From positions 17,682 to 81,681 of the forward strand of contig DATAUF010000077.1 in NCBI GenBank assembly GCA_036268405.1: a stretch of 64,000 bases of DNA, given 5' to 3'. Below are positions 28,067-35,950 of the stretch, in pieces. The stretch is from Mycobacteriales bacterium (GTDB taxonomy: Bacteria; Actinomycetota; Actinomycetes; JAFAQI01). A model generated the notes under the pieces. It was not told the origin of the DNA. It ran no database searches and saw only the letters and a list, made by a program, of their open reading frames with translations. The position numbers and the translations under genes are program-made. Positions within the stretch are counted from its first letter, which is position 1. Each line of letters opens with the position of its first letter.

Positions 28067-28594
28067 GGGATGATGGTCGCCGTGGACCGAGCGGATGAGA
28101 CTGCGCTGCGCGAGTTGTACGACGCGCATGCCGGTGCGCTGCTCGCGTACTCGATCAGGCTGACGGGTGGCGATCGCGGGCGCGCCGAAGATGTCGTGCA
28201 AGAGACGATGTTGCGGGCATGGCGGCACCGGGACTCCCTCGACGAGTCCAAGGGCCCGATCCGTCCGTGGTTGTTCACGGTTGCCCATCGCGTAGCGATT
28301 GACGCGTATCGGGCGCGGGCGGCGCGCCCCACTGAGGTCGGGGACAGCGTGCTCGAGTCCATCCCGCGTGCGGACGACATCGACGCCCGGCTCGACCGGC
28401 TGCTGATCAGCGACGCCATGCTGGCGCTGTCCGCCGAGCACCGCAGCGTTCTCGTCGAGACCTACTACCGCGGCCGGTCGGTCGCTGAGGCTGCCGAGGT
28501 GCTTGGCGTCCCCGCCGGAACGGTCAAGTCGCGGACGTTCTACGCGCTTCGCGCCCTCAAGCTTGCGCTTGCCGAGAGAGGAGTGACCACATGA
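28067..28594 (+). CDS. ECF (sigma-70 family) RNA polymerase sigma factor
   Basis: Region 2 (VVQETMLRAWRH) and region 4 (SVAEAAEVLGVPAGTVKSR) are both present. Confidence 0.8.
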   Translation, partial: GMMVAVDRADETALRELYDAHAGALLAYSIRLTGGDRGRAEDVVQETMLRAWRHRDSLDESKGPIRPWLFTVAHRVAIDAYRARAARPTEVGDSVLESIPRADDIDARLDRLLISDAMLALSAEHRSVLVETYYRGRSVAEAAEVLGVPAGTVKSRTFYALRALKLALAERGVTT

Positions 28595-29286
28595 TCTGTT
28601 CCGACGCCACTATCGCGCTCGGCGCATACGTGCTGGGCACGCTCGACGGGCACGAGCGCTCAGAGGTCGACGCCCACCTGCGTGGCTGTGTCGACTGCCG
28701 CGCGGCGCTCGACGAGCTCGCGGCCCTCCCGGCATTGCTCGAGCGGCTGAGCCTGCAGGATCTCGGCGAGGCGATCCCGCTTGCGGATGCCCCCGAGGAG
28801 CTGTTTGCCAAGGTCGCGGCACAAGCGCGCGCCGAACACGACCGCTCCGAGTCGGCCGCACCTGTCTCCGCTGTCGTCCTGCCATTCCATCGTCGTCGGC
28901 GGGTGCAGCTCGCATCGGCGGCGGCGGCGGTCGTGCTCATCGCGGGGGCGACCACGACCGTGGCGCTCGTCGGCTCCTCGGGTCCGGACCGCCCCGGTGT
29001 GCAGGTGGTCGCAGGCGCGCAGGGACCGGTCCACATGAGGGTGGCGCTGTCGTCCCAGACGGCCGGAACGGCCCTGCGGGTATCGGTGTCAGGGCTGCCC
29101 AAGGATGAGCGCTGCCGGCTGGTGGCCATCGCCGACGACGGCACCAGGGACTACGTCGGCCGGTGGTATGCGACGTACTCAGGTGACGCCCAGGTGACCG
29201 GCTCGACGTCGATCGCGACCGGGCAGCTTGCACAGCTCGTGCTGCTCGGCACCGATGGCAAGAAGCTGGTGAGCGTCCCGATCTGA
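28591..29286 (+). CDS. anti-sigma factor (zinc-finger, membrane-spanning)
   Basis: An HxxxCxxC motif (HLRGCVDCRAA) is followed by a central TM segment. Its start overlaps the sigma factor stop as ATGA. Confidence 0.65.
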   Translation: MICSDATIALGAYVLGTLDGHERSEVDAHLRGCVDCRAALDELAALPALLERLSLQDLGEAIPLADAPEELFAKVAAQARAEHDRSESAAPVSAVVLPFHRRRRVQLASAAAAVVLIAGATTTVALVGSSGPDRPGVQVVAGAQGPVHMRVALSSQTAGTALRVSVSGLPKDERCRLVAIADDGTRDYVGRWYATYSGDAQVTGSTSIATGQLAQLVLLGTDGKKLVSVPI

Positions 29287-29456
29287 TGCTGGTGACCGTG
29301 CCGACCTGATCGTGGCGGGGGCGCCCGTTCGCACCGGGCTGTACGGCCATTCGGCCTAGTCTCGTGTGGCATTTGCCTCGGCCACCTGCGGGGTTCGTTC
29401 CCTCCCGATTTCGGGCAGTATCCGGATATCCGCCTGTCGGACCAGGAGTCTTCCCC

Positions 29457-29869: not shown

Positions 29870-30043
29870 TTAGCGGTGTCCCGACACCGGATTCGCTTCA
29901 CGATCGGCGGCCGCGGGGACACGGCAGACTTGCGGGGCGCCGTCACAGCAGGGCTCGTAGTAGAGGCAGCTCGGACATCGGTTGTGTGCCTGTTCGGCGT
30001 ACATCTGGGTTCCGCAGTTGGGACAAGGCAGATCAAGCGCCAT
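29870..30043 (-). CDS. small CPxCG zinc-ribbon protein (57 aa), not in the ORF track
   Basis: The reverse-complement translation is MALDLPCPNCGTQMYAEQAHNRCPSCLYYEPCCDGAPQVCRVPAAADREANPVSGHR. It is divergent from imuA', with the LexA box in the shared 74-bp intergenic region. Confidence 0.4.
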   Translation of the reverse strand: MALDLPCPNCGTQMYAEQAHNRCPSCLYYEPCCDGAPQVCRVPAAADREANPVSGHR

Positions 30044-30091
30044 CGGGCCATGATGAGCGAAGGAATCACCCGGAACCCGTATTGACTTGAT

Positions 30092-30107
30092 TCGAACATA
30101 CGTTCGA
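30092..30107. promoter_or_regulatory. LexA (SOS) box, actinobacterial Cheo-box type TCGAAC-N4-GTTCGA
   Basis: The exact palindrome tcgaacatacgttcga lies 11 bp upstream of the imuA' ATG. A TTGACT -35-like hexamer sits immediately upstream. Confidence 0.8.
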
Positions 30108-30117
30108 TGATGGCCGG

Positions 30118-30846
30118 ATGGTCGACACGGCAGTCCGGTCGCTAGCCCGCACTCTCGAGCTGCAGTCGGCCGTGCAGCCTGCCGCTGTTGCAGGGACCCG
30201 GTCGCCCGCGCTCTCCGTGCTTCCTGCGCTGCAGTCCCTGCTCCCGGACGGGCTGCGGCGTGGCAGCACTGTCAGCGTCAGCGGATCGACGTCGTTGCTG
30301 TTGGCGTTGCTTGCCGCGGCATCGGCCGAGGGTGCGTGGTGTGTGCTGGTCGACCTGCCGTTCGGCGGCGGCGCGGCCCAGCTGTCGGCAGAGGCGGCGG
30401 AGGACTACGGGATCGACCTGGCGAGGCTTCCGCTGGTGCCCTGTGCCGGGAAGAGCTGGACGACCGTCGTCGGAGCTCTGCTCGACGCGTTCGACGTTGT
30501 CGCGGCCCGCCCACCCACGCGATTGCCCGACGGCGATCTGCGCCGGCTCGCGGCCCGAGCCCGGGCCAGGCAGTCGGTGCTCGTGCCGGTCCTCGCGTCG
30601 GGCGGGCGTTGGCCGACGGCTGACCTGCGCCTGGCCGCCGAGCCCGGTGAGTGGGTCGGCATCGGGGACGGCTACGGCCGGTTGTCTCGTCGGCAGGTGA
30701 GGGTGGTCGTCGACGGTCGCGGACAGTCCGCTGGGGGTCGCTCGGCAACCTTGTGGCTACCCGATGCTCGCGGGGGCGTGACACCCGAGGAGACCGAGTC
30801 GGTCGCACCTGTGGTGAAGCTGTCCGAGGCACGATTCAGTGGCTAG
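30118..30846 (+). CDS. imuA': ImuA' (RecA/SulA-like mutasome accessory protein)
   Basis: It is the first gene of a LexA-box-controlled cassette followed by imuB and dnaE2, with a degenerate RecA-like fold. Confidence 0.7.
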   Translation: MVDTAVRSLARTLELQSAVQPAAVAGTRSPALSVLPALQSLLPDGLRRGSTVSVSGSTSLLLALLAAASAEGAWCVLVDLPFGGGAAQLSAEAAEDYGIDLARLPLVPCAGKSWTTVVGALLDAFDVVAARPPTRLPDGDLRRLAARARARQSVLVPVLASGGRWPTADLRLAAEPGEWVGIGDGYGRLSRRQVRVVVDGRGQSAGGRSATLWLPDARGGVTPEETESVAPVVKLSEARFSG

Positions 30847-30855
30847 TGGCCGTAC

Positions 30856-30943
30856 CGATCGACCCGGCGTGGATAGACCCTGTGCGGATAGACCCAGCGT
30901 GGATAGACCCTGTGCGGATAGACCCAGCGCGGATCTACCCAGG
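30856..30943. repeat. 15/30-bp tandem repeat (GGATAGACCCTGTGC GGATAGACCCAGCGT) x about 2.5-5.5 at imuA'/imuB junction
   Basis: Read directly in the sequence. The unit length is a multiple of 3. Confidence 0.85.
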
Positions 30944-30952
30944 ATTGCGACG

Positions 30953-32494
30953 GTGTGGTGCCCCGACTGGCCAGTCGTCGCGGCGGGCAACGCCGCTGCC
31001 GTTGATGCCCTGGACGTCCCGGTCGCGGTCCTCGTGGCCAATCGGGTGGTCGCCTGCTCGAACCGGGCACGCGGGATCGGCGTACGGCGGGGGATGCGAC
31101 GACGCGAGGCGCAGGCGCGTTGTCCCGAGCTGATCGCGCTCGTTCGCGACGAAGCAATCGAGGCACGGTATTTCGAGCCGGCGATCCGCGCCGTCGAGAC
31201 GGTGGTGTCGGGCGTGGAGGTGGTGAGGCCCGGGCTGCTCACGCTGGCGGCGCGGGGCCCGGCTCGCCATCTCGGCGGGGAGCCGGCGCTGGTGACAACG
31301 CTCGAAGAGGCGGTCAGCTGGATGGCGCCCGAGGTGGCGGTGGGGGTCGCCGACGGTGCCTTCGCTGCCGAACAGGCGGCTCGGCAGCGAGTCGTGGTCC
31401 CGGCGGGTGGCTCGGCGGCGTTTCTTGCCGACCTGCCGGTCGGGACGCTCGATGCGTTCGGCGGCTCGGCGCTGGTGGACGTGTTGCGCCGGCTGGGGAT
31501 CTGGACCCTCGGTGGCTTCGCCGCGTTGCCGGCGAAGGACGTCGCTGCCCGGTTCGGTCCGACGGGGGCCTGGGCGCACCGGCAAGCCGGTGGCCGCGAC
31601 GCGAGGCCGGTAGTGATCCGAGAGCCACCGGTCGACTGCTCGGTGACCGTGGACCTCGATCCGCCGGTTGACCGGGTCGACGTCGTCGCGTTCTCCGCCC
31701 GAGGTGCGGTCGAGACGTTCATCGCCAATCTCTCGTCGCGTGGCCTGGCGTGTTCCTGTGTCGAGCTCGAGGTCGCCTCCGAAGCGGGAGAGCGCGCGGC
31801 CCGGCGATGGCGGGCAAGCGGTGTGCTGTCAGCGAGTGACGTCATCGACCGAATCCGCTGGCAGATCGAGGGCTGGCTGCACGCCGCAGACGGCGAACCG
31901 CGGCTCACCGCCGGAATCACCGCGCTTCGGATCGTGCCGGTCGAGACCGTGCCGACCGGGGCACACCAGCAGGCCTTGTGGGGCGGTGACGGAGAGTCGG
32001 GCGAGCGCGCCCGCCGGGCGCTGGCCCGGGTGCAGACCATGCTCGGTTTCGATGGCGTGGTCGCTCCATCAGTAGTGGGCGGCCGCGGTCCGGTGCAGCG
32101 CAACGGGCTCACGGCATGGGGCGAGGAGCGGCCTGTCTCGCGTCGCGCCGACGAGCCATGGCCGGGTCATCTGCCCTCTCCTGCGCCCAGCCTGGTGCTC
32201 GACCCGCCCACTCCGGTGCGGCTGCTCGACGCCTCTGGTCGGTCGGTGGTGGTGGGTGAGCGGGGAGCGATCGTGCGCCCGCCCAGCGTGCTGGGGCTGC
32301 GGGCGGACCCTCCGGTCGCGGTGATCTCGTGGGCCGGTCCGTGGCCGGCGGACGAGCGGTGGTGGGACCCGGCGAGTGCAGTCCGGGTGGCCCGGATGCA
32401 GCTCGTAGACGACCGAGGCCGCGCATATCTGGTGGCGGGCGAGATGTGCAGCGGGGCAGAGCCCCGCTGGCACCTAGAAGGCATCTATGACTAA
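30953..32494 (+). CDS. imuB: ImuB (Y-family polymerase-like, catalytically inactive mutasome scaffold)
   Basis: The conserved N-terminal (L)WCPDWP motif and the Y-family fold place it between imuA' and dnaE2. An alternative GTG start at 30839 overlaps the imuA' stop by 8 nt and would add a (DRPxx)n N-terminal extension encoded by the tandem repeat. Confidence 0.75.
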   Translation: MWCPDWPVVAAGNAAAVDALDVPVAVLVANRVVACSNRARGIGVRRGMRRREAQARCPELIALVRDEAIEARYFEPAIRAVETVVSGVEVVRPGLLTLAARGPARHLGGEPALVTTLEEAVSWMAPEVAVGVADGAFAAEQAARQRVVVPAGGSAAFLADLPVGTLDAFGGSALVDVLRRLGIWTLGGFAALPAKDVAARFGPTGAWAHRQAGGRDARPVVIREPPVDCSVTVDLDPPVDRVDVVAFSARGAVETFIANLSSRGLACSCVELEVASEAGERAARRWRASGVLSASDVIDRIRWQIEGWLHAADGEPRLTAGITALRIVPVETVPTGAHQQALWGGDGESGERARRALARVQTMLGFDGVVAPSVVGGRGPVQRNGLTAWGEERPVSRRADEPWPGHLPSPAPSLVLDPPTPVRLLDASGRSVVVGERGAIVRPPSVLGLRADPPVAVISWAGPWPADERWWDPASAVRVARMQLVDDRGRAYLVAGEMCSGAEPRWHLEGIYD

Positions 32495-32512
32495 CGCCGA
32501 GGCTATGACTAA

Positions 32513-32576
32513 CGCCGAGGCCAACCTTTTGGGTCTTTCAGAGGGGTCTGAAAGACCATTTACGTTGGCCTCGACG
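32513..32576. repeat. palindromic intergenic repeat, copy B (CGCCGAGGCCAACC...GTTGGCCTCGACG)
   Basis: It shares the GAGGCCAAC/GTTGGCCTC arms and the GGGGTCTGAAAGACC centre with copy A. It is preceded by an 18-bp tandem duplication, ctatgactaacgccgagg x2. Confidence 0.85.
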
Positions 32577-32578
32577 TA

Positions 32579-35500
32579 ATGGGGTGGGAGAACCCGCCAG
32601 TTCCTTGGCGGGAGCTGGAGGCTCGCTTGTCGGGCAGAGTGCCCGACAAGCCTCGTGCCGAGGGCGAGGGTGATGGGGGAGATGCGGCCGGCTGGTCGAG
32701 ACACCGGCCGGCGTACGAGCCCAAGCCGATTCCTCGCCCGGTCAAGGCGGTGCCCTATGCCGAGCTGCATGCCCACTCCTCCTTCAGCCACCTCGACGGC
32801 GCGAGCCTGCCGGAGGAGCTGGTCGAGGAGGCCGTCCGGCTCGGCCTGACCGGGCTCGCACTCACCGACCACAACGGGATGTACGGCGTCCCTCGCTTCG
32901 CGGAGGCCGCGGGAGTCGTCGAGCTGCCGACGATCTACGGCGCCGAGCTGTCGCTCGACCTCCCGATGCCCCGGACGGCATCGCAGCGCGCGACCGGCGC
33001 CCGGTCCGGGAGGCCCGACCCGTCGGGGCGGCATCTGCTGGTGCTGGCGCGTGGTCCGTCCGGCTACTCCCTGCTGTGCCGGGCGATGAGCGTCGCGCAT
33101 CGCCGCGGCGGCGCGAAGGGTCATCCGGTCTACGACCTTGACGAGCTGACCGAAGCTGCGGGCGGTCACTGGCTGGTACTGACCGGCTGCCGCAAGGGGT
33201 TGTTGCGCACGGCGCTGGAGTCCGGTGACTACGGGACGTTCGGGCTCGACCCGGCGCGGCGCGCCCTCGACGAGCTGGTGGCGCGATTCGGTCGCGACAA
33301 CGTCGCGGTGGAGCTGTCCTACGCACGCGACCCGCTCGCCGACGAGCGGTACGACGCACTGTCGCTGCTCGCCGAGGAGGCGGGGTTGGTGTGTGTCGCC
33401 ACGACCGGCGCGCACTACCACGGTCCACCGCGACGGCCGCTGGCCACCGCGATGGCGGCGGTGCGGGCACGACGCAGCCTGGACGAGATCGACGGCTGGC
33501 TACCGGCCTGGGCTGACGCGCACCTTCGCAGCGGCGAGGAGATGGCGCAGCGGCTCGCCCGCTGGCCGGGCGCGGTCGAGGCATCGGTGCGGCTGGGCGC
33601 CGAGCTGGCGTTCCCGATCGGGCTGATCGCCCCCAAGCTGCCACCGTTCCCCGCGCCGGCCGGCCACACGGAGATGACGTACCTGCGCAAGCTCTCGTTC
33701 GAGGGCGCCGAGCGCCGTTACGGCCCGCGTCGCAAAGAGTCGGAGAAGGCGTACGCCCGGATCGAGCACGAGCTGAAGGTGATCGAGGAGCTGAAGTTCC
33801 CCGGCTACTTCCTCGTGGTCTGGGAGATCGTCGCCTTCGCGCGGTCGCAGGGCATCCTCTGCCAGGGCCGCGGGTCGGCGGCGTCCTCGGCGGTCTGTTA
33901 CGCGCTGGAGATCACGTCCATCGACCCGGTCTTCTACGACCTGGTATTCGAGCGGTTCCTCGCCGCGGCGCGCAACGAGCCGCCGGACATCGACGTCGAC
34001 TTCGAGTCGGGACGCCGCGAGGAGGTCATCCAGCACGTCTACTCCACCTACGGGCGCGACCACACCGCGCAGGTCGCCAACGTCATCACCTACCGGCCGC
34101 GGTCGGCGGTCCGCGACGTCGCCAAGGCGCTCGGCTATCCGACCGGCACGCAGGACGCGTGGAGCAAGCAGATCGACAGCGCCCATCGGGTCGACCTCGC
34201 CGAGGTGCACGGCGTACCGCAGCAGGTCCTGGACCTGGCCGACGAGCTGCGTGATGCGCCCCGCCATCTCGGCATCCACTCCGGCGGCATGGTGATCTGC
34301 GACCGGCCGATCGTCGAGGTCTGTCCGGTGGAGTGGGGGCGGATGCCCGGCCGGACCGTCCTGCAGTGGGACAAGGACGACTGCGCCGCCATCGACCTGG
34401 TGAAGTTCGACCTGCTGGGGCTCGGGATGCTCTCCGCGTTGCGCTACAGCTTCGAGCTGATCGAGGACTGGTACGGCGTGCACTACGACCTGGCGACGAT
34501 TCCCCGAGAGCAGCCGTGCGTCTACGACATGGTCTGCAAGGCCGACACCGTCGGGGTGTTCCAGATCGAGTCACGTGCCCAGATGGCGACGTTGCCGCGG
34601 CTGCGTCCCCGCAACTTCTACGACCTGGTGATCGAGGTCGCGCTGATCCGGCCCGGGCCGATCCAGGGCGACTCGGTGCATCCCTACATCCGCCGCCGTC
34701 ACGGTCGCGAGCCAGTGACCTATCTGCACGAGAAGATGAAGTCGGCTCTGGAGCGAACGCTCGGCGTCCCGCTGTTCCAGGAGCAGATGATGCAGCTCGC
34801 GGTCGGCGTCGCCAACTTCACACCCAACGAGGCCGACCAGCTGCGGCGCGCGATGGGATCGAAGCGGTCCATGGCCAGGATCGATGCGCTGCAGCAACGG
34901 CTCTACGACGGGATGGCGGACAACGGGATCACCGGCGCTGAGGCCGACACCATCGTGGACAAGATCCGGGCGTTCGCGTCGTTCGGCTTTGCCGAAAGCC
35001 ACGCGATCTCCTTCGCGCTGCTGGTCTACGCGTCGTCGTGGCTGAAGCTGCACCACCCGGCGGCGTTCTGCGCCGCGTTGATCAACGCGCAGCCGATGGG
35101 TTTCTACTCACCGCAGTCGCTGGTCGCCGATGCGCGGCGGCACGGGATCACCACGCGCGGGCCCGACATCAATGTCTCCGCCGCCGCTTGCACCCTCGAG
35201 GCGGATGACGGCCCCTCACAGTGTCCGTGTCTCGATGCGCCGCAACCCGCCGTGCGGCTCGGGCTCTCTGAGGTGCGCACCGTCGGGGACGACCTCGCCG
35301 CGCGAATCGTCGAGATCCGCAAGGCCGACGGCCCGTATTTGTCGATAACCGACCTCGCCCACCGCGTGGGTCTGTCGACCGACCACCTCGAGGCGCTGGC
35401 CACTGCAGGTGCGTTCGACGGGTTCGGTGTCACCCGGCGGGATGCGCTGTGGGTGGCGGGCGCAGCGGCGGCGGTGAAGCCGGGCCAGCTCGAGCTGCCG

Positions 35501-35950
35501 ATCGTCGACGAGCGTGACGCGCCAGAGCTGCCGGTCATGACCTCCCCCGAGCAGATGTACGCCGACCTGTGGGCGACCGGGGTGACGCCGGAGCTCTACC
35601 CGACCGCGCTGTCCCGGGACCGGATGGATGCGCTCGGCGTCGTGACCGCTGCGGGCCTGCGGCTGCTCGAGGACCACACGCGGGTGCTGGTCGGGGGAGT
35701 GGTGACCCACCGGCAGCGGCCGGTCACCGCACGCGGGGTCACGTTCGTCAACCTCGAGGACGAGACCGGGATGATCAACGTGATCTGCTCCAAGGAGATC
35801 TGGGCGCGCTACCGAAAGGTCGCGCAGGGCTCCGCGGCGCTGCTGATCCGCGGCATGCTGCAGCACACCGACAACGTCGTGAACGTCATGGCCGAGCGAA
35901 TCCAGCCACTGCCCCTCGGCGTACGCCCGTCAGCCCGCGACTTCCGCTGA
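32579..35950 (+). CDS. dnaE2: error-prone DNA polymerase DnaE2 (PolIII alpha C-family paralogue)
   Basis: A 1123-aa protein with a PHP domain (HAHSSFS...DG), a PolIIIa core and an OB fold. Its position after imuA'-imuB matches the known cassette. Confidence 0.9.
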   Translation: MGWENPPVPWRELEARLSGRVPDKPRAEGEGDGGDAAGWSRHRPAYEPKPIPRPVKAVPYAELHAHSSFSHLDGASLPEELVEEAVRLGLTGLALTDHNGMYGVPRFAEAAGVVELPTIYGAELSLDLPMPRTASQRATGARSGRPDPSGRHLLVLARGPSGYSLLCRAMSVAHRRGGAKGHPVYDLDELTEAAGGHWLVLTGCRKGLLRTALESGDYGTFGLDPARRALDELVARFGRDNVAVELSYARDPLADERYDALSLLAEEAGLVCVATTGAHYHGPPRRPLATAMAAVRARRSLDEIDGWLPAWADAHLRSGEEMAQRLARWPGAVEASVRLGAELAFPIGLIAPKLPPFPAPAGHTEMTYLRKLSFEGAERRYGPRRKESEKAYARIEHELKVIEELKFPGYFLVVWEIVAFARSQGILCQGRGSAASSAVCYALEITSIDPVFYDLVFERFLAAARNEPPDIDVDFESGRREEVIQHVYSTYGRDHTAQVANVITYRPRSAVRDVAKALGYPTGTQDAWSKQIDSAHRVDLAEVHGVPQQVLDLADELRDAPRHLGIHSGGMVICDRPIVEVCPVEWGRMPGRTVLQWDKDDCAAIDLVKFDLLGLGMLSALRYSFELIEDWYGVHYDLATIPREQPCVYDMVCKADTVGVFQIESRAQMATLPRLRPRNFYDLVIEVALIRPGPIQGDSVHPYIRRRHGREPVTYLHEKMKSALERTLGVPLFQEQMMQLAVGVANFTPNEADQLRRAMGSKRSMARIDALQQRLYDGMADNGITGAEADTIVDKIRAFASFGFAESHAISFALLVYASSWLKLHHPAAFCAALINAQPMGFYSPQSLVADARRHGITTRGPDINVSAAACTLEADDGPSQCPCLDAPQPAVRLGLSEVRTVGDDLAARIVEIRKADGPYLSITDLAHRVGLSTDHLEALATAGAFDGFGVTRRDALWVAGAAAAVKPGQLELPIVDERDAPELPVMTSPEQMYADLWATGVTPELYPTALSRDRMDALGVVTAAGLRLLEDHTRVLVGGVVTHRQRPVTARGVTFVNLEDETGMINVICSKEIWARYRKVAQGSAALLIRGMLQHTDNVVNVMAERIQPLPLGVRPSARDFR

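Follow-up and report, generated by a model that had tools for sequence, protein, structure and literature searches.

A tandem repeat at the imuA'/imuB junction of a Mycobacteriales mutasome cassette and its probable origin from the first codons of imuB

The stretch of DNA analysed here, referred to as the window, comprises 64,000 nucleotides of contig DATAUF010000077.1 (positions 17,682 to 81,681, forward strand) and derives from a metagenome-assembled genome deposited as 'Mycobacteriales bacterium' (GCA_036268405.1). It contains an imuA'-imuB-dnaE2 cassette with a short tandem repeat at the junction of the first two genes. According to the list of open reading frames imuA' (30118..30846, plus strand) encodes 242 amino acids and ends with ...SEARFSG* at TAG 30844-30846, a C-terminus that aligns with those of relatives; in a profile search the product matched NCBIfam NF058630 (4e-44). 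In its long reading, with the repeat-encoded tail included, imuB (30839..32494, plus strand) encodes 551 amino acids. The product matched PF00817 and had 4488 homologues, many of them named ImuB, so that the gene names given in an earlier sequence-based reading of this locus (the original prediction) can be retained. The third gene, dnaE2 (32579..35950, plus strand), encodes an error-prone DNA polymerase (NF004225, 1448 bits). ImuA', the Y-family protein ImuB and DnaE2 are thus encoded together as a mutasome cassette, and the gene order is kept in relatives. The public ImuB record (P0001, 513 amino acids, 100% identical, the only member of its cluster) begins further downstream with MWCPDWP, at a GTG (30953) followed by TGG TGC CCC GAC TGG CCA as originally described.

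The array lies behind a leader, GTG GCT AGT GGC CGT ACC (30839-30856), and consists of 15-nt units on the plus strand. The first unit (30857..30871, GATCGACCCGGCGTG) reads GAT CGA CCC GGC GTG (D R P G V), forms a degenerate 5' edge and holds an in-frame GTG at 30869. Four core units follow (30872..30931), of which those beginning at 30872 and 30902 share the sequence GATAGACCCTGTGCG, while the unit at 30887 is GATAGACCCAGCGTG and that at 30917 is GATAGACCCAGCGCG. They encode DRPCA DRPSV DRPCA DRPSA and include a further in-frame GTG at 30899. A sixth unit beginning at 30932, GATCTACCCAGGATT, makes up the degenerate 3' edge. If the core is read as two 30-bp units (the second and third versus the fourth and fifth 15-nt units), these differ in a single base (30930, T/C). 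The program TRF reported the array with a period of 15 (30857-30942, 5.7 copies, 80% matches) and with a period of 30 (30857-30934, 2.6 copies, 93% matches, score 135). This score was the highest of all arrays in the window, and the maximum in 40 dinucleotide-preserving shuffles of the window was 70. Four exact copies of GGATAGACCC are present in the array and occur only there within the window. The frame of imuB is open from 30839, meets no stop until 32492 and reads MASGRTDRPGVDRPCADRPSVDRPCADRPSADLPRIATVWCPDWP; because the unit is 15 nt (or 30 nt, likewise a multiple of three) and has no imuB-frame stop codon, the frame is maintained through the array. A frame-preserving repeat of 15/30 bp at this junction is therefore just what had been described, although the count of about five units plus a degenerate one has to be changed to four core units and two degenerate edge units.

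As the source is a metagenome-assembled genome and repeats can be mis-assembled, the array might be thought an artefact of short-read assembly. We regard this as very improbable. The units are not all the same, at its edges the array merges gradually into unique sequence and native codons, the frame is intact, and a typical read would be longer than the entire array of 86 nt.

The junction was compared with those of seven distinct relatives with ImuB identities of 79-86% (L001, L002, L006, L035, L036, L037 and L038; L003-L005 are identical to L002, and L039 is identical to L038). The array was absent from all seven orthologous junctions. Aligned with them, the window has 78 additional nt, or 26 codons, inserted after the imuA' stop and before the codons for LPRIATV. 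At the closest junction, that of L002, the sequence reads GGAG-tgcgtcgca-GTG GCT AGC AGC GCG GTG GAC CTT CCC CGG ATC (M-A-S-S-A-V-D-L-P-R-I). The corresponding sequence in the window is GAGG-cacgattca-GTG GCT AGT ...[array]... AGC GCG GAT CTA CCC AGG ATT (M-A-S-[26 residues]-S-A-D-L-P-R-I). In all seven relatives imuB starts 9-13 nt after GGAG within the last imuA' codons, abutting or overlapping the imuA' stop. In four of them (L001, L035, L037 and L038) the frame is bounded by an in-frame stop directly before the start (TAG GTG twice, TAG TAG ATG and TGA ATG), so that the start is unambiguous and falls at or just before the equivalent of Leu33 in the long reading. No DRP tract was found among the 120 and 62 listed homologues, and a search with the first 90 residues of ImuB returned no protein covering the tract.

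The point at which ImuB becomes conserved was located with the N-termini of 120 homologues and an alignment of 65 sequences. Conservation begins 5-7 residues before WCPDWP, where the closest clade has LPRIATVWCPDWP and more distant homologues have PPRMATLWCPDWP or PPRMIAVWCPDWP, and the common pattern L/P-P-R-I/M-A-T-V lies upstream of GTG 30953. All 65 proteins have an arginine at position 35 (numbered by the long reading). The leaders ahead of this arginine measure 0-23 residues in the same alignment and are unconserved. An AlphaFold model built on the 65 sequences (mean predicted local distance difference test score, pLDDT, 79.6) places the first strand, β1, at residues 35-40 (RIATVW), and residues 1-29, with pLDDT values below 50 and no secondary structure, are predicted to be disordered. 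There is no solved ImuB structure in the PDB, where only distant matches to Pol eta and Pol IV were obtained. The invariant Arg35 and the position of β1 argue that protein-coding sequence extends upstream of GTG 30953. A start at Val39 (GTG 30953) would cost the protein this arginine and four of the six β1 residues. A second line of evidence comes from the LPRIATV codons themselves (30935..30955, plus strand), which mark the start of β1 and include the annotated GTG. They specify the same amino acids in eight sequences, and the roughly 10 substitutions at their 7 variable nucleotide sites are all synonymous, with no non-synonymous change. By our own count about 35% of single changes in these codons are synonymous, which gives a chance of about 3e-5 for the all-synonymous pattern and points to selection at the protein level. 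The original prediction had named orthologues without any repeat and with a conserved start at WCPDWP as the finding that would speak against it; the first part was seen at all seven junctions, the second was not, as the N-terminal alignment places the onset of conservation upstream, at L/P-P-R.

The same comparison explains the 3' edge of the array. The last 'degenerate unit' is, judged by its homology, native imuB 5' coding sequence, a point missed by the original prediction. It contains the codons GCG GAT CTA CCC AGG (A D L P R; 30929..30943, plus strand), which are homologous to GCG GTG GAC CTT CCC CGG in L002 (part of S-A-V-D-L-P-R). This native unit matches the core unit GCGGATAGACCCAGC in register at 12 of 15 positions. 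Matches at this level are expected 3.29 times per 128,000 positions (the window, both strands), so that the chance per position is about 2.6e-5. The homology of the last unit to native codons means that the array can be understood as an amplification of the first codons of imuB itself (S-A/V-D-L-P). We therefore consider it fairly probable that a coding minisatellite, young and restricted to this lineage, arose here by tandem duplication of these codons and is translated as a disordered tail.

The following course of events would account for the present sequence. The ancestral junction may have read ...GTG GCT AG(imuA' stop)... AGC GCG (GTG) GAT CTN CCC NGG ATC..., encoding M-A-S-...-S-A-(V)-D-L-P-R-I. 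A 15-nt piece (S-A/V-D-L-P) would have been copied several times, presumably by replication slippage or unequal exchange. The upstream copies would then have drifted, with CTA changing to CGA in the first unit and to AGA in the second to fifth (Leu to Arg), and with AGC GTG diverging from TGT GCG. Duplication of the resulting 30-bp double unit would have been the most recent event; this order is suggested by the alternation of AGC GTG and TGT GCG, which is overlaid by the nearly perfect 30-bp duplication. The template copy is still recognisable, presumably because selection on the protein has held it in place. Ribosomes would start at GTG 30839, 9 nt past GAGG and overlapping the imuA' stop, so that initiation could be coupled to termination of imuA'. 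Reading through the array, they would produce an ImuB with the 26-residue insertion GRTDRPGVDRPCADRPSVDRPCADRP in its variable, unstructured leader, ahead of the LPRIATVWCPDWP strand.

Which codon initiates imuB can be narrowed down considerably. Between the in-frame stop TGA 30815-30817 and position 30935 the only in-frame ATG, GTG or TTG codons are GTG 30839, 30869 and 30899; the stretch from 30902 to 30952 offers no such codon, only an ATT at 30944. For LPRIATV to be translated, ribosomes would have to initiate before position 30935 and would thus read 12 or more codons of the repeat. GTG 30839 (30839..30841, plus strand, in the context GTGGCTAG, which is also in frame in L002-L005) overlaps the imuA' stop by 8 nt, as had been noted originally, and is preceded at a distance of 9 nt by a Shine-Dalgarno (SD)-like GAGG (30826..30829, plus strand). 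The arrangement of an SD, 9 nt and an in-frame GTGGCTAG is common to the window (GAGG) and L002 (GGAG), and with the stop/start overlap and the SD in the 3' end of imuA' the window shows the features of a coupled junction. Duplex formation with the anti-SD was also strongest at 30839 (-6.8 kcal/mol), other candidates ranging from -3.3 to -5.1 kcal/mol. GTG 30839 is thus favoured by the geometry shared with L002, by the SD-start distances of the relatives and by its anti-SD pairing. SD strength was nevertheless discarded as a decisive criterion, because all values, including the best, fell within the background distribution. We put translation of the tract, from 30839 or from one of the internal GTG codons, at somewhat better than even. 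An N-terminal extension of ImuB appears to be tolerated, since an N-terminal EGFP-ImuB fusion keeps mutagenic function in Mycobacterium smegmatis (PMC10421592). Two starts had been proposed originally: the coupled GTG 30839 with a translated extension, which gains support from the comparison with relatives, and GTG 30953 with the repeat as an intergenic variable-number tandem repeat (VNTR), which is weakened by it.

Several observations weigh against translation of the tract. The codons of the tract are poor: AGA, which accounts for 2.3% of arginine codons, occurs four times, GAT and TGT belong to the minor codons, and the G+C content at third codon positions (GC3) is 0.50 in frame, compared with 0.875 in genes. 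Such codon usage fits a recent origin and fits non-coding DNA equally well. The open frame across the array is weak evidence for translation, since any 15-nt unit preserves the frame automatically and just one of the three forward frames is closed. The SD scores are unexceptional against background, and the canonical SD of most relatives, ACGGAGA, has become ACGATTC in the window. The LPRI codons of the window include the rare CTA, AGG and ATT, and AGG ATT creates an AGGA 8 nt before GTG 30953, a possible independent start.

These observations can be combined into an alternative in which the array is an untranslated spacer within the operon and ImuB starts at GTG 30953 (30953..30955, plus strand; the internal Val39 of the long reading) by means of the AGGA at 30941-30944. 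The array would then have placed 106 nt between the imuA' stop and the start of imuB and uncoupled the two genes, leaving the LPRIAT codons as a relic. The public record P0001 begins at this very codon, the AGGA arose by changes specific to the window (CGG ATC to AGG ATT), the SD typical of the relatives is lost, and the rare codons extend from the tract into LPRI. However, such a protein would lose the arginine invariant in 65 ImuBs and most of β1 (see above), and the window-specific changes in LPRIATV are all synonymous. Anti-SD pairing is weaker at 30953 (-4.4 kcal/mol) than at 30839. Moreover, no relative with a stop-bounded frame starts at the equivalent of Val39. We therefore think the untranslated spacer unlikely, and the public start at MWCPDWP probably truncates the protein. 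Comparative evidence suggests that in this clade the start of imuB lies immediately ahead of L/P-P-R and is coupled to the imuA' stop. Some other homologues (P0010, P0017, P0019, P0091 and forms beginning MATLW or MIAVW) look as if they had likewise been shortened by gene callers.

It had also been suggested that changes in copy number could tune ImuB, which would make the array a functional, copy-number-variable contingency VNTR acting on the amount or the N-terminus of ImuB and hence on mutasome activity. The two 30-bp units, only one base apart, do indicate a recent duplication and a slippage-prone array, and the in-frame GTG codons at 30869 and 30899 have been multiplied with the unit. A similar 15-bp array in an unrelated organism varies between two assemblies (7.1 copies in L011 and 10.1 in L031). 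We nevertheless judge this explanation improbable. No second assembly of the source organism was found in the collections searched (DNA scans and protein clusters), so that polymorphism is not documented, and all relatives manage without the array. With a start at 30839, which lies upstream of the array, a change in copy number alters the length of the tail and leaves the geometry of initiation and coupling as it is. The tail itself is predicted to be disordered and falls in an unconserved region. Nor was an RNA structure indicated: a 201-nt fold at the array was no stabler than shuffles (z = +0.83), and Rfam gave no match near it. A more elaborate form of the idea is that slippage-prone amplification of the imuB initiation region allows copy number to shift the choice of GTG or the length of the tail, and thereby ImuA':ImuB stoichiometry or mutasome assembly, as a contingency locus for an inducible mutation rate. 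This we hold to be quite improbable.

The position of the array at a start codon within an operon recalls mycobacterial interspersed repetitive units (MIRUs), and a likeness to MIRU-VNTRs had been proposed. MIRUs, an apparently mobile family, are dispersed over many loci in each genome, and Supply et al. are said to have given their unit as roughly 40-100 bp. The imuB array is indeed tandem, lies at a start codon within a Mycobacteriales operon and has a stop/start overlap on its upstream side. Unlike MIRU-VNTRs, however, it has units of 15/30 bp, is confined to a single locus and consists of codons derived from the host gene and fused in frame to imuB. In the window no other copy of the array 10-mer was found at one mismatch or fewer, and matches to the 15-mer at up to three mismatches remained at chance level outside the array. 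The unit was absent from 39 fetched loci, and a scan for GGATAGACCC-N5-GGATAGACCC in collections of genome and metagenome contigs yielded 28 loci, all in unrelated organisms and none at imuB. Each MIRU has its own short open reading frame coupled to the downstream gene with a spacing of -4 (PMC12548453). At imuB, by comparison, no TGA, TAA or TAG overlaps GTG 30953, and the array lacks stop codons in the imuB frame. The proposed likeness thus breaks down over unit size, dispersal and the architecture of stop and start.

The same observations bear on a broader possibility: the array might be a mobile repetitive element, MIRU-like or of another type, inserted where the start codon of imuB lies, or its units might be iterons bound by a protein. 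In favour of it are the resemblance of its position to MIRU insertion sites (PMC12548453) and the regular spacing of the direct repeats. Against it stand the short unit, the lack of further copies in 64 kb and the purely unrelated loci from two collection scans, as well as the missing internal stop overlapping a downstream start. Its last unit belongs to the conserved coding sequence of imuB itself, and its absence from all relatives argues against a conserved regulatory role. An explanation of this kind seems to us hardly credible.

The closest parallel is provided by coding minisatellites, short in-frame tandem duplications that lengthen disordered termini or linkers of proteins; their units are likewise multiples of three, open in the frame of the host gene and copied from adjoining native sequence. 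All of this applies to imuB, where the unit is in frame, is homologous to the adjoining native sequence and is absent from orthologues. As in coding minisatellites, the inner units are most alike and the edge units degenerate, and the array lies in an unconserved, disordered segment. The imuB array differs in that it includes the initiation region and multiplies in-frame GTG codons, which makes the true start ambiguous. With the coupled imuA'-imuB junctions of actinobacteria the locus shares a start that abuts or overlaps the stop and an SD in the 3' end of imuA' (in the window GTGGCTAG is retained and is preceded by GAGG at a distance of 9 nt), but it has 26 extra codons between the start and the conserved body of ImuB. 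The five-residue period, with A-D-L-P-R as the native unit, is reminiscent of pentapeptide-repeat proteins (PF00805, A(D/N)LXX). In contrast to these, the central residue is Arg instead of Leu or Phe in five of six units, and there are only six units, which are predicted to be disordered. A pentapeptide-repeat fold was consequently rejected, as PF00805 gave no match at E values up to 10 and the model is disordered here.

The repeat is thus real but ordinary, and most likely it adds a floppy 26-residue tail to ImuB that is probably neutral or nearly so. If the array did originate as proposed, the locus would offer a clean, small example of how a gene can grow at its 5' end when its own initial codons are duplicated in tandem. 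The main practical consequence is that the publicly annotated start codon is probably wrong; a corrected ImuB start for this clade and a clear view of the coupled imuA'-imuB junction are useful by-products. Should the tail or its copy number affect the mutasome, this would be interesting with regard to how induced mutagenesis is regulated; none of the present results points to such an effect.

Small tandem duplications are frequent at gene ends in this stretch of the window. A perfect 18-bp duplication (CTATGACTAACGCCGAGG, 2.1 copies, 32485-32521) spans the imuB stop; its first copy keeps the stop, and ImuB is unchanged. The relatives read ...atctatgacTGA CGCCGAGGCCAACG at this point and do not have the 18-bp duplication. 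Together with the 5' array this means that both ends of imuB carry tandem duplications in the lineage of the window. A 23-bp duplication (86% identical, 29265-29310) crosses the stop (TGA 29284-29286) of a gene for a zf-HC2 anti-sigma factor (28591-29286) and is the third duplication at a gene end within 3.3 kb. In the relative L006 an in-frame 27-bp tandem duplication (2.2 copies, L006 3762-3823) is located inside imuB; judged by its position in the gene, it falls roughly at a low-confidence linker of the window's ImuB model (residues about 417-454). Elsewhere in the window a perfect 16-bp tandem repeat, CCCGCCTGACACTGCG, is present in 2.8 copies (2061-2104).

Arrays of 15 bp with a very similar unit, GGATAGACCCGGTC(N), were encountered in unrelated bacteria (L011 2754-2860, L031 2118-2269, L013, L017, L018 and L019). 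L011 and L031 represent the same Noviherbaspirillum locus in two assemblies, and the difference in copy number given above shows this array to be a true VNTR. The recurrence of the unit across phyla may reflect ascertainment bias, since the search pattern selects arrays of period 15. An array of Emticicia fluvialis (L017 3790-3989) is coding and specifies (QDRPG)n in a disordered N-terminal region of a 1097-amino-acid protein with the IF-2 GTPase motif GHVDHGKTSLLD, which provides a precedent for DRPxx repeats being tolerated in disordered segments. A coding role of the 'DRP' frames in the unrelated arrays in general was rejected, as the long open frames running across several of these arrays are mostly GC-rich shadow frames and only the Emticicia IF-2 case is convincing.

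The spacer between imuB and dnaE2 contains a nested inverted repeat (32516-32574). Its outer arms are CGAGGCCAAC (32516-32525) and GTTGGCCTCG (32565-32574), and its inner hairpin of 11 bp, GGTCTTTCAGA-GGGG-TCTGAAAGACC (32532-32557), was flagged as terminator-like. In L001, L002 and L038 similar outer arms (…CCAACGTAAG…CGTTGG…) enclose a different inner sequence. The inverted repeat may act as an attenuator or form a conserved structure in RNA or DNA.

Upstream of imuA' lies the only exact LexA-type match in the window, TCGAACATACGTTCGA (30092..30107, plus strand), which we take to be an SOS box on the basis of the actinobacterial consensus TCGAAC-N4-GTTCGA. It is enclosed by a promoter-like site found in a promoter scan, TTGACT-18-GATGAT (30082-30111), directly upstream of the gene, and the block TTGAC(T/A)(T/G)GATTCGAACATACGTTCGATGATGG is conserved at this position in all seven relatives. 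The imuA'-imuB-dnaE2 cassette is therefore a candidate for control by LexA in response to DNA damage. A divergent open reading frame of 57 amino acids (MALDLPCPNCGTQMYAEQAHNRCPSCLYYEPCCDGAPQVC..., 29870-30043, minus strand) is also located upstream of imuA'. Its product, too short for the list of open reading frames of at least 80 amino acids, is rich in cysteine and resembles a zinc ribbon. All relatives show strong conservation of its DNA, and this reading frame may share the SOS-controlled region.

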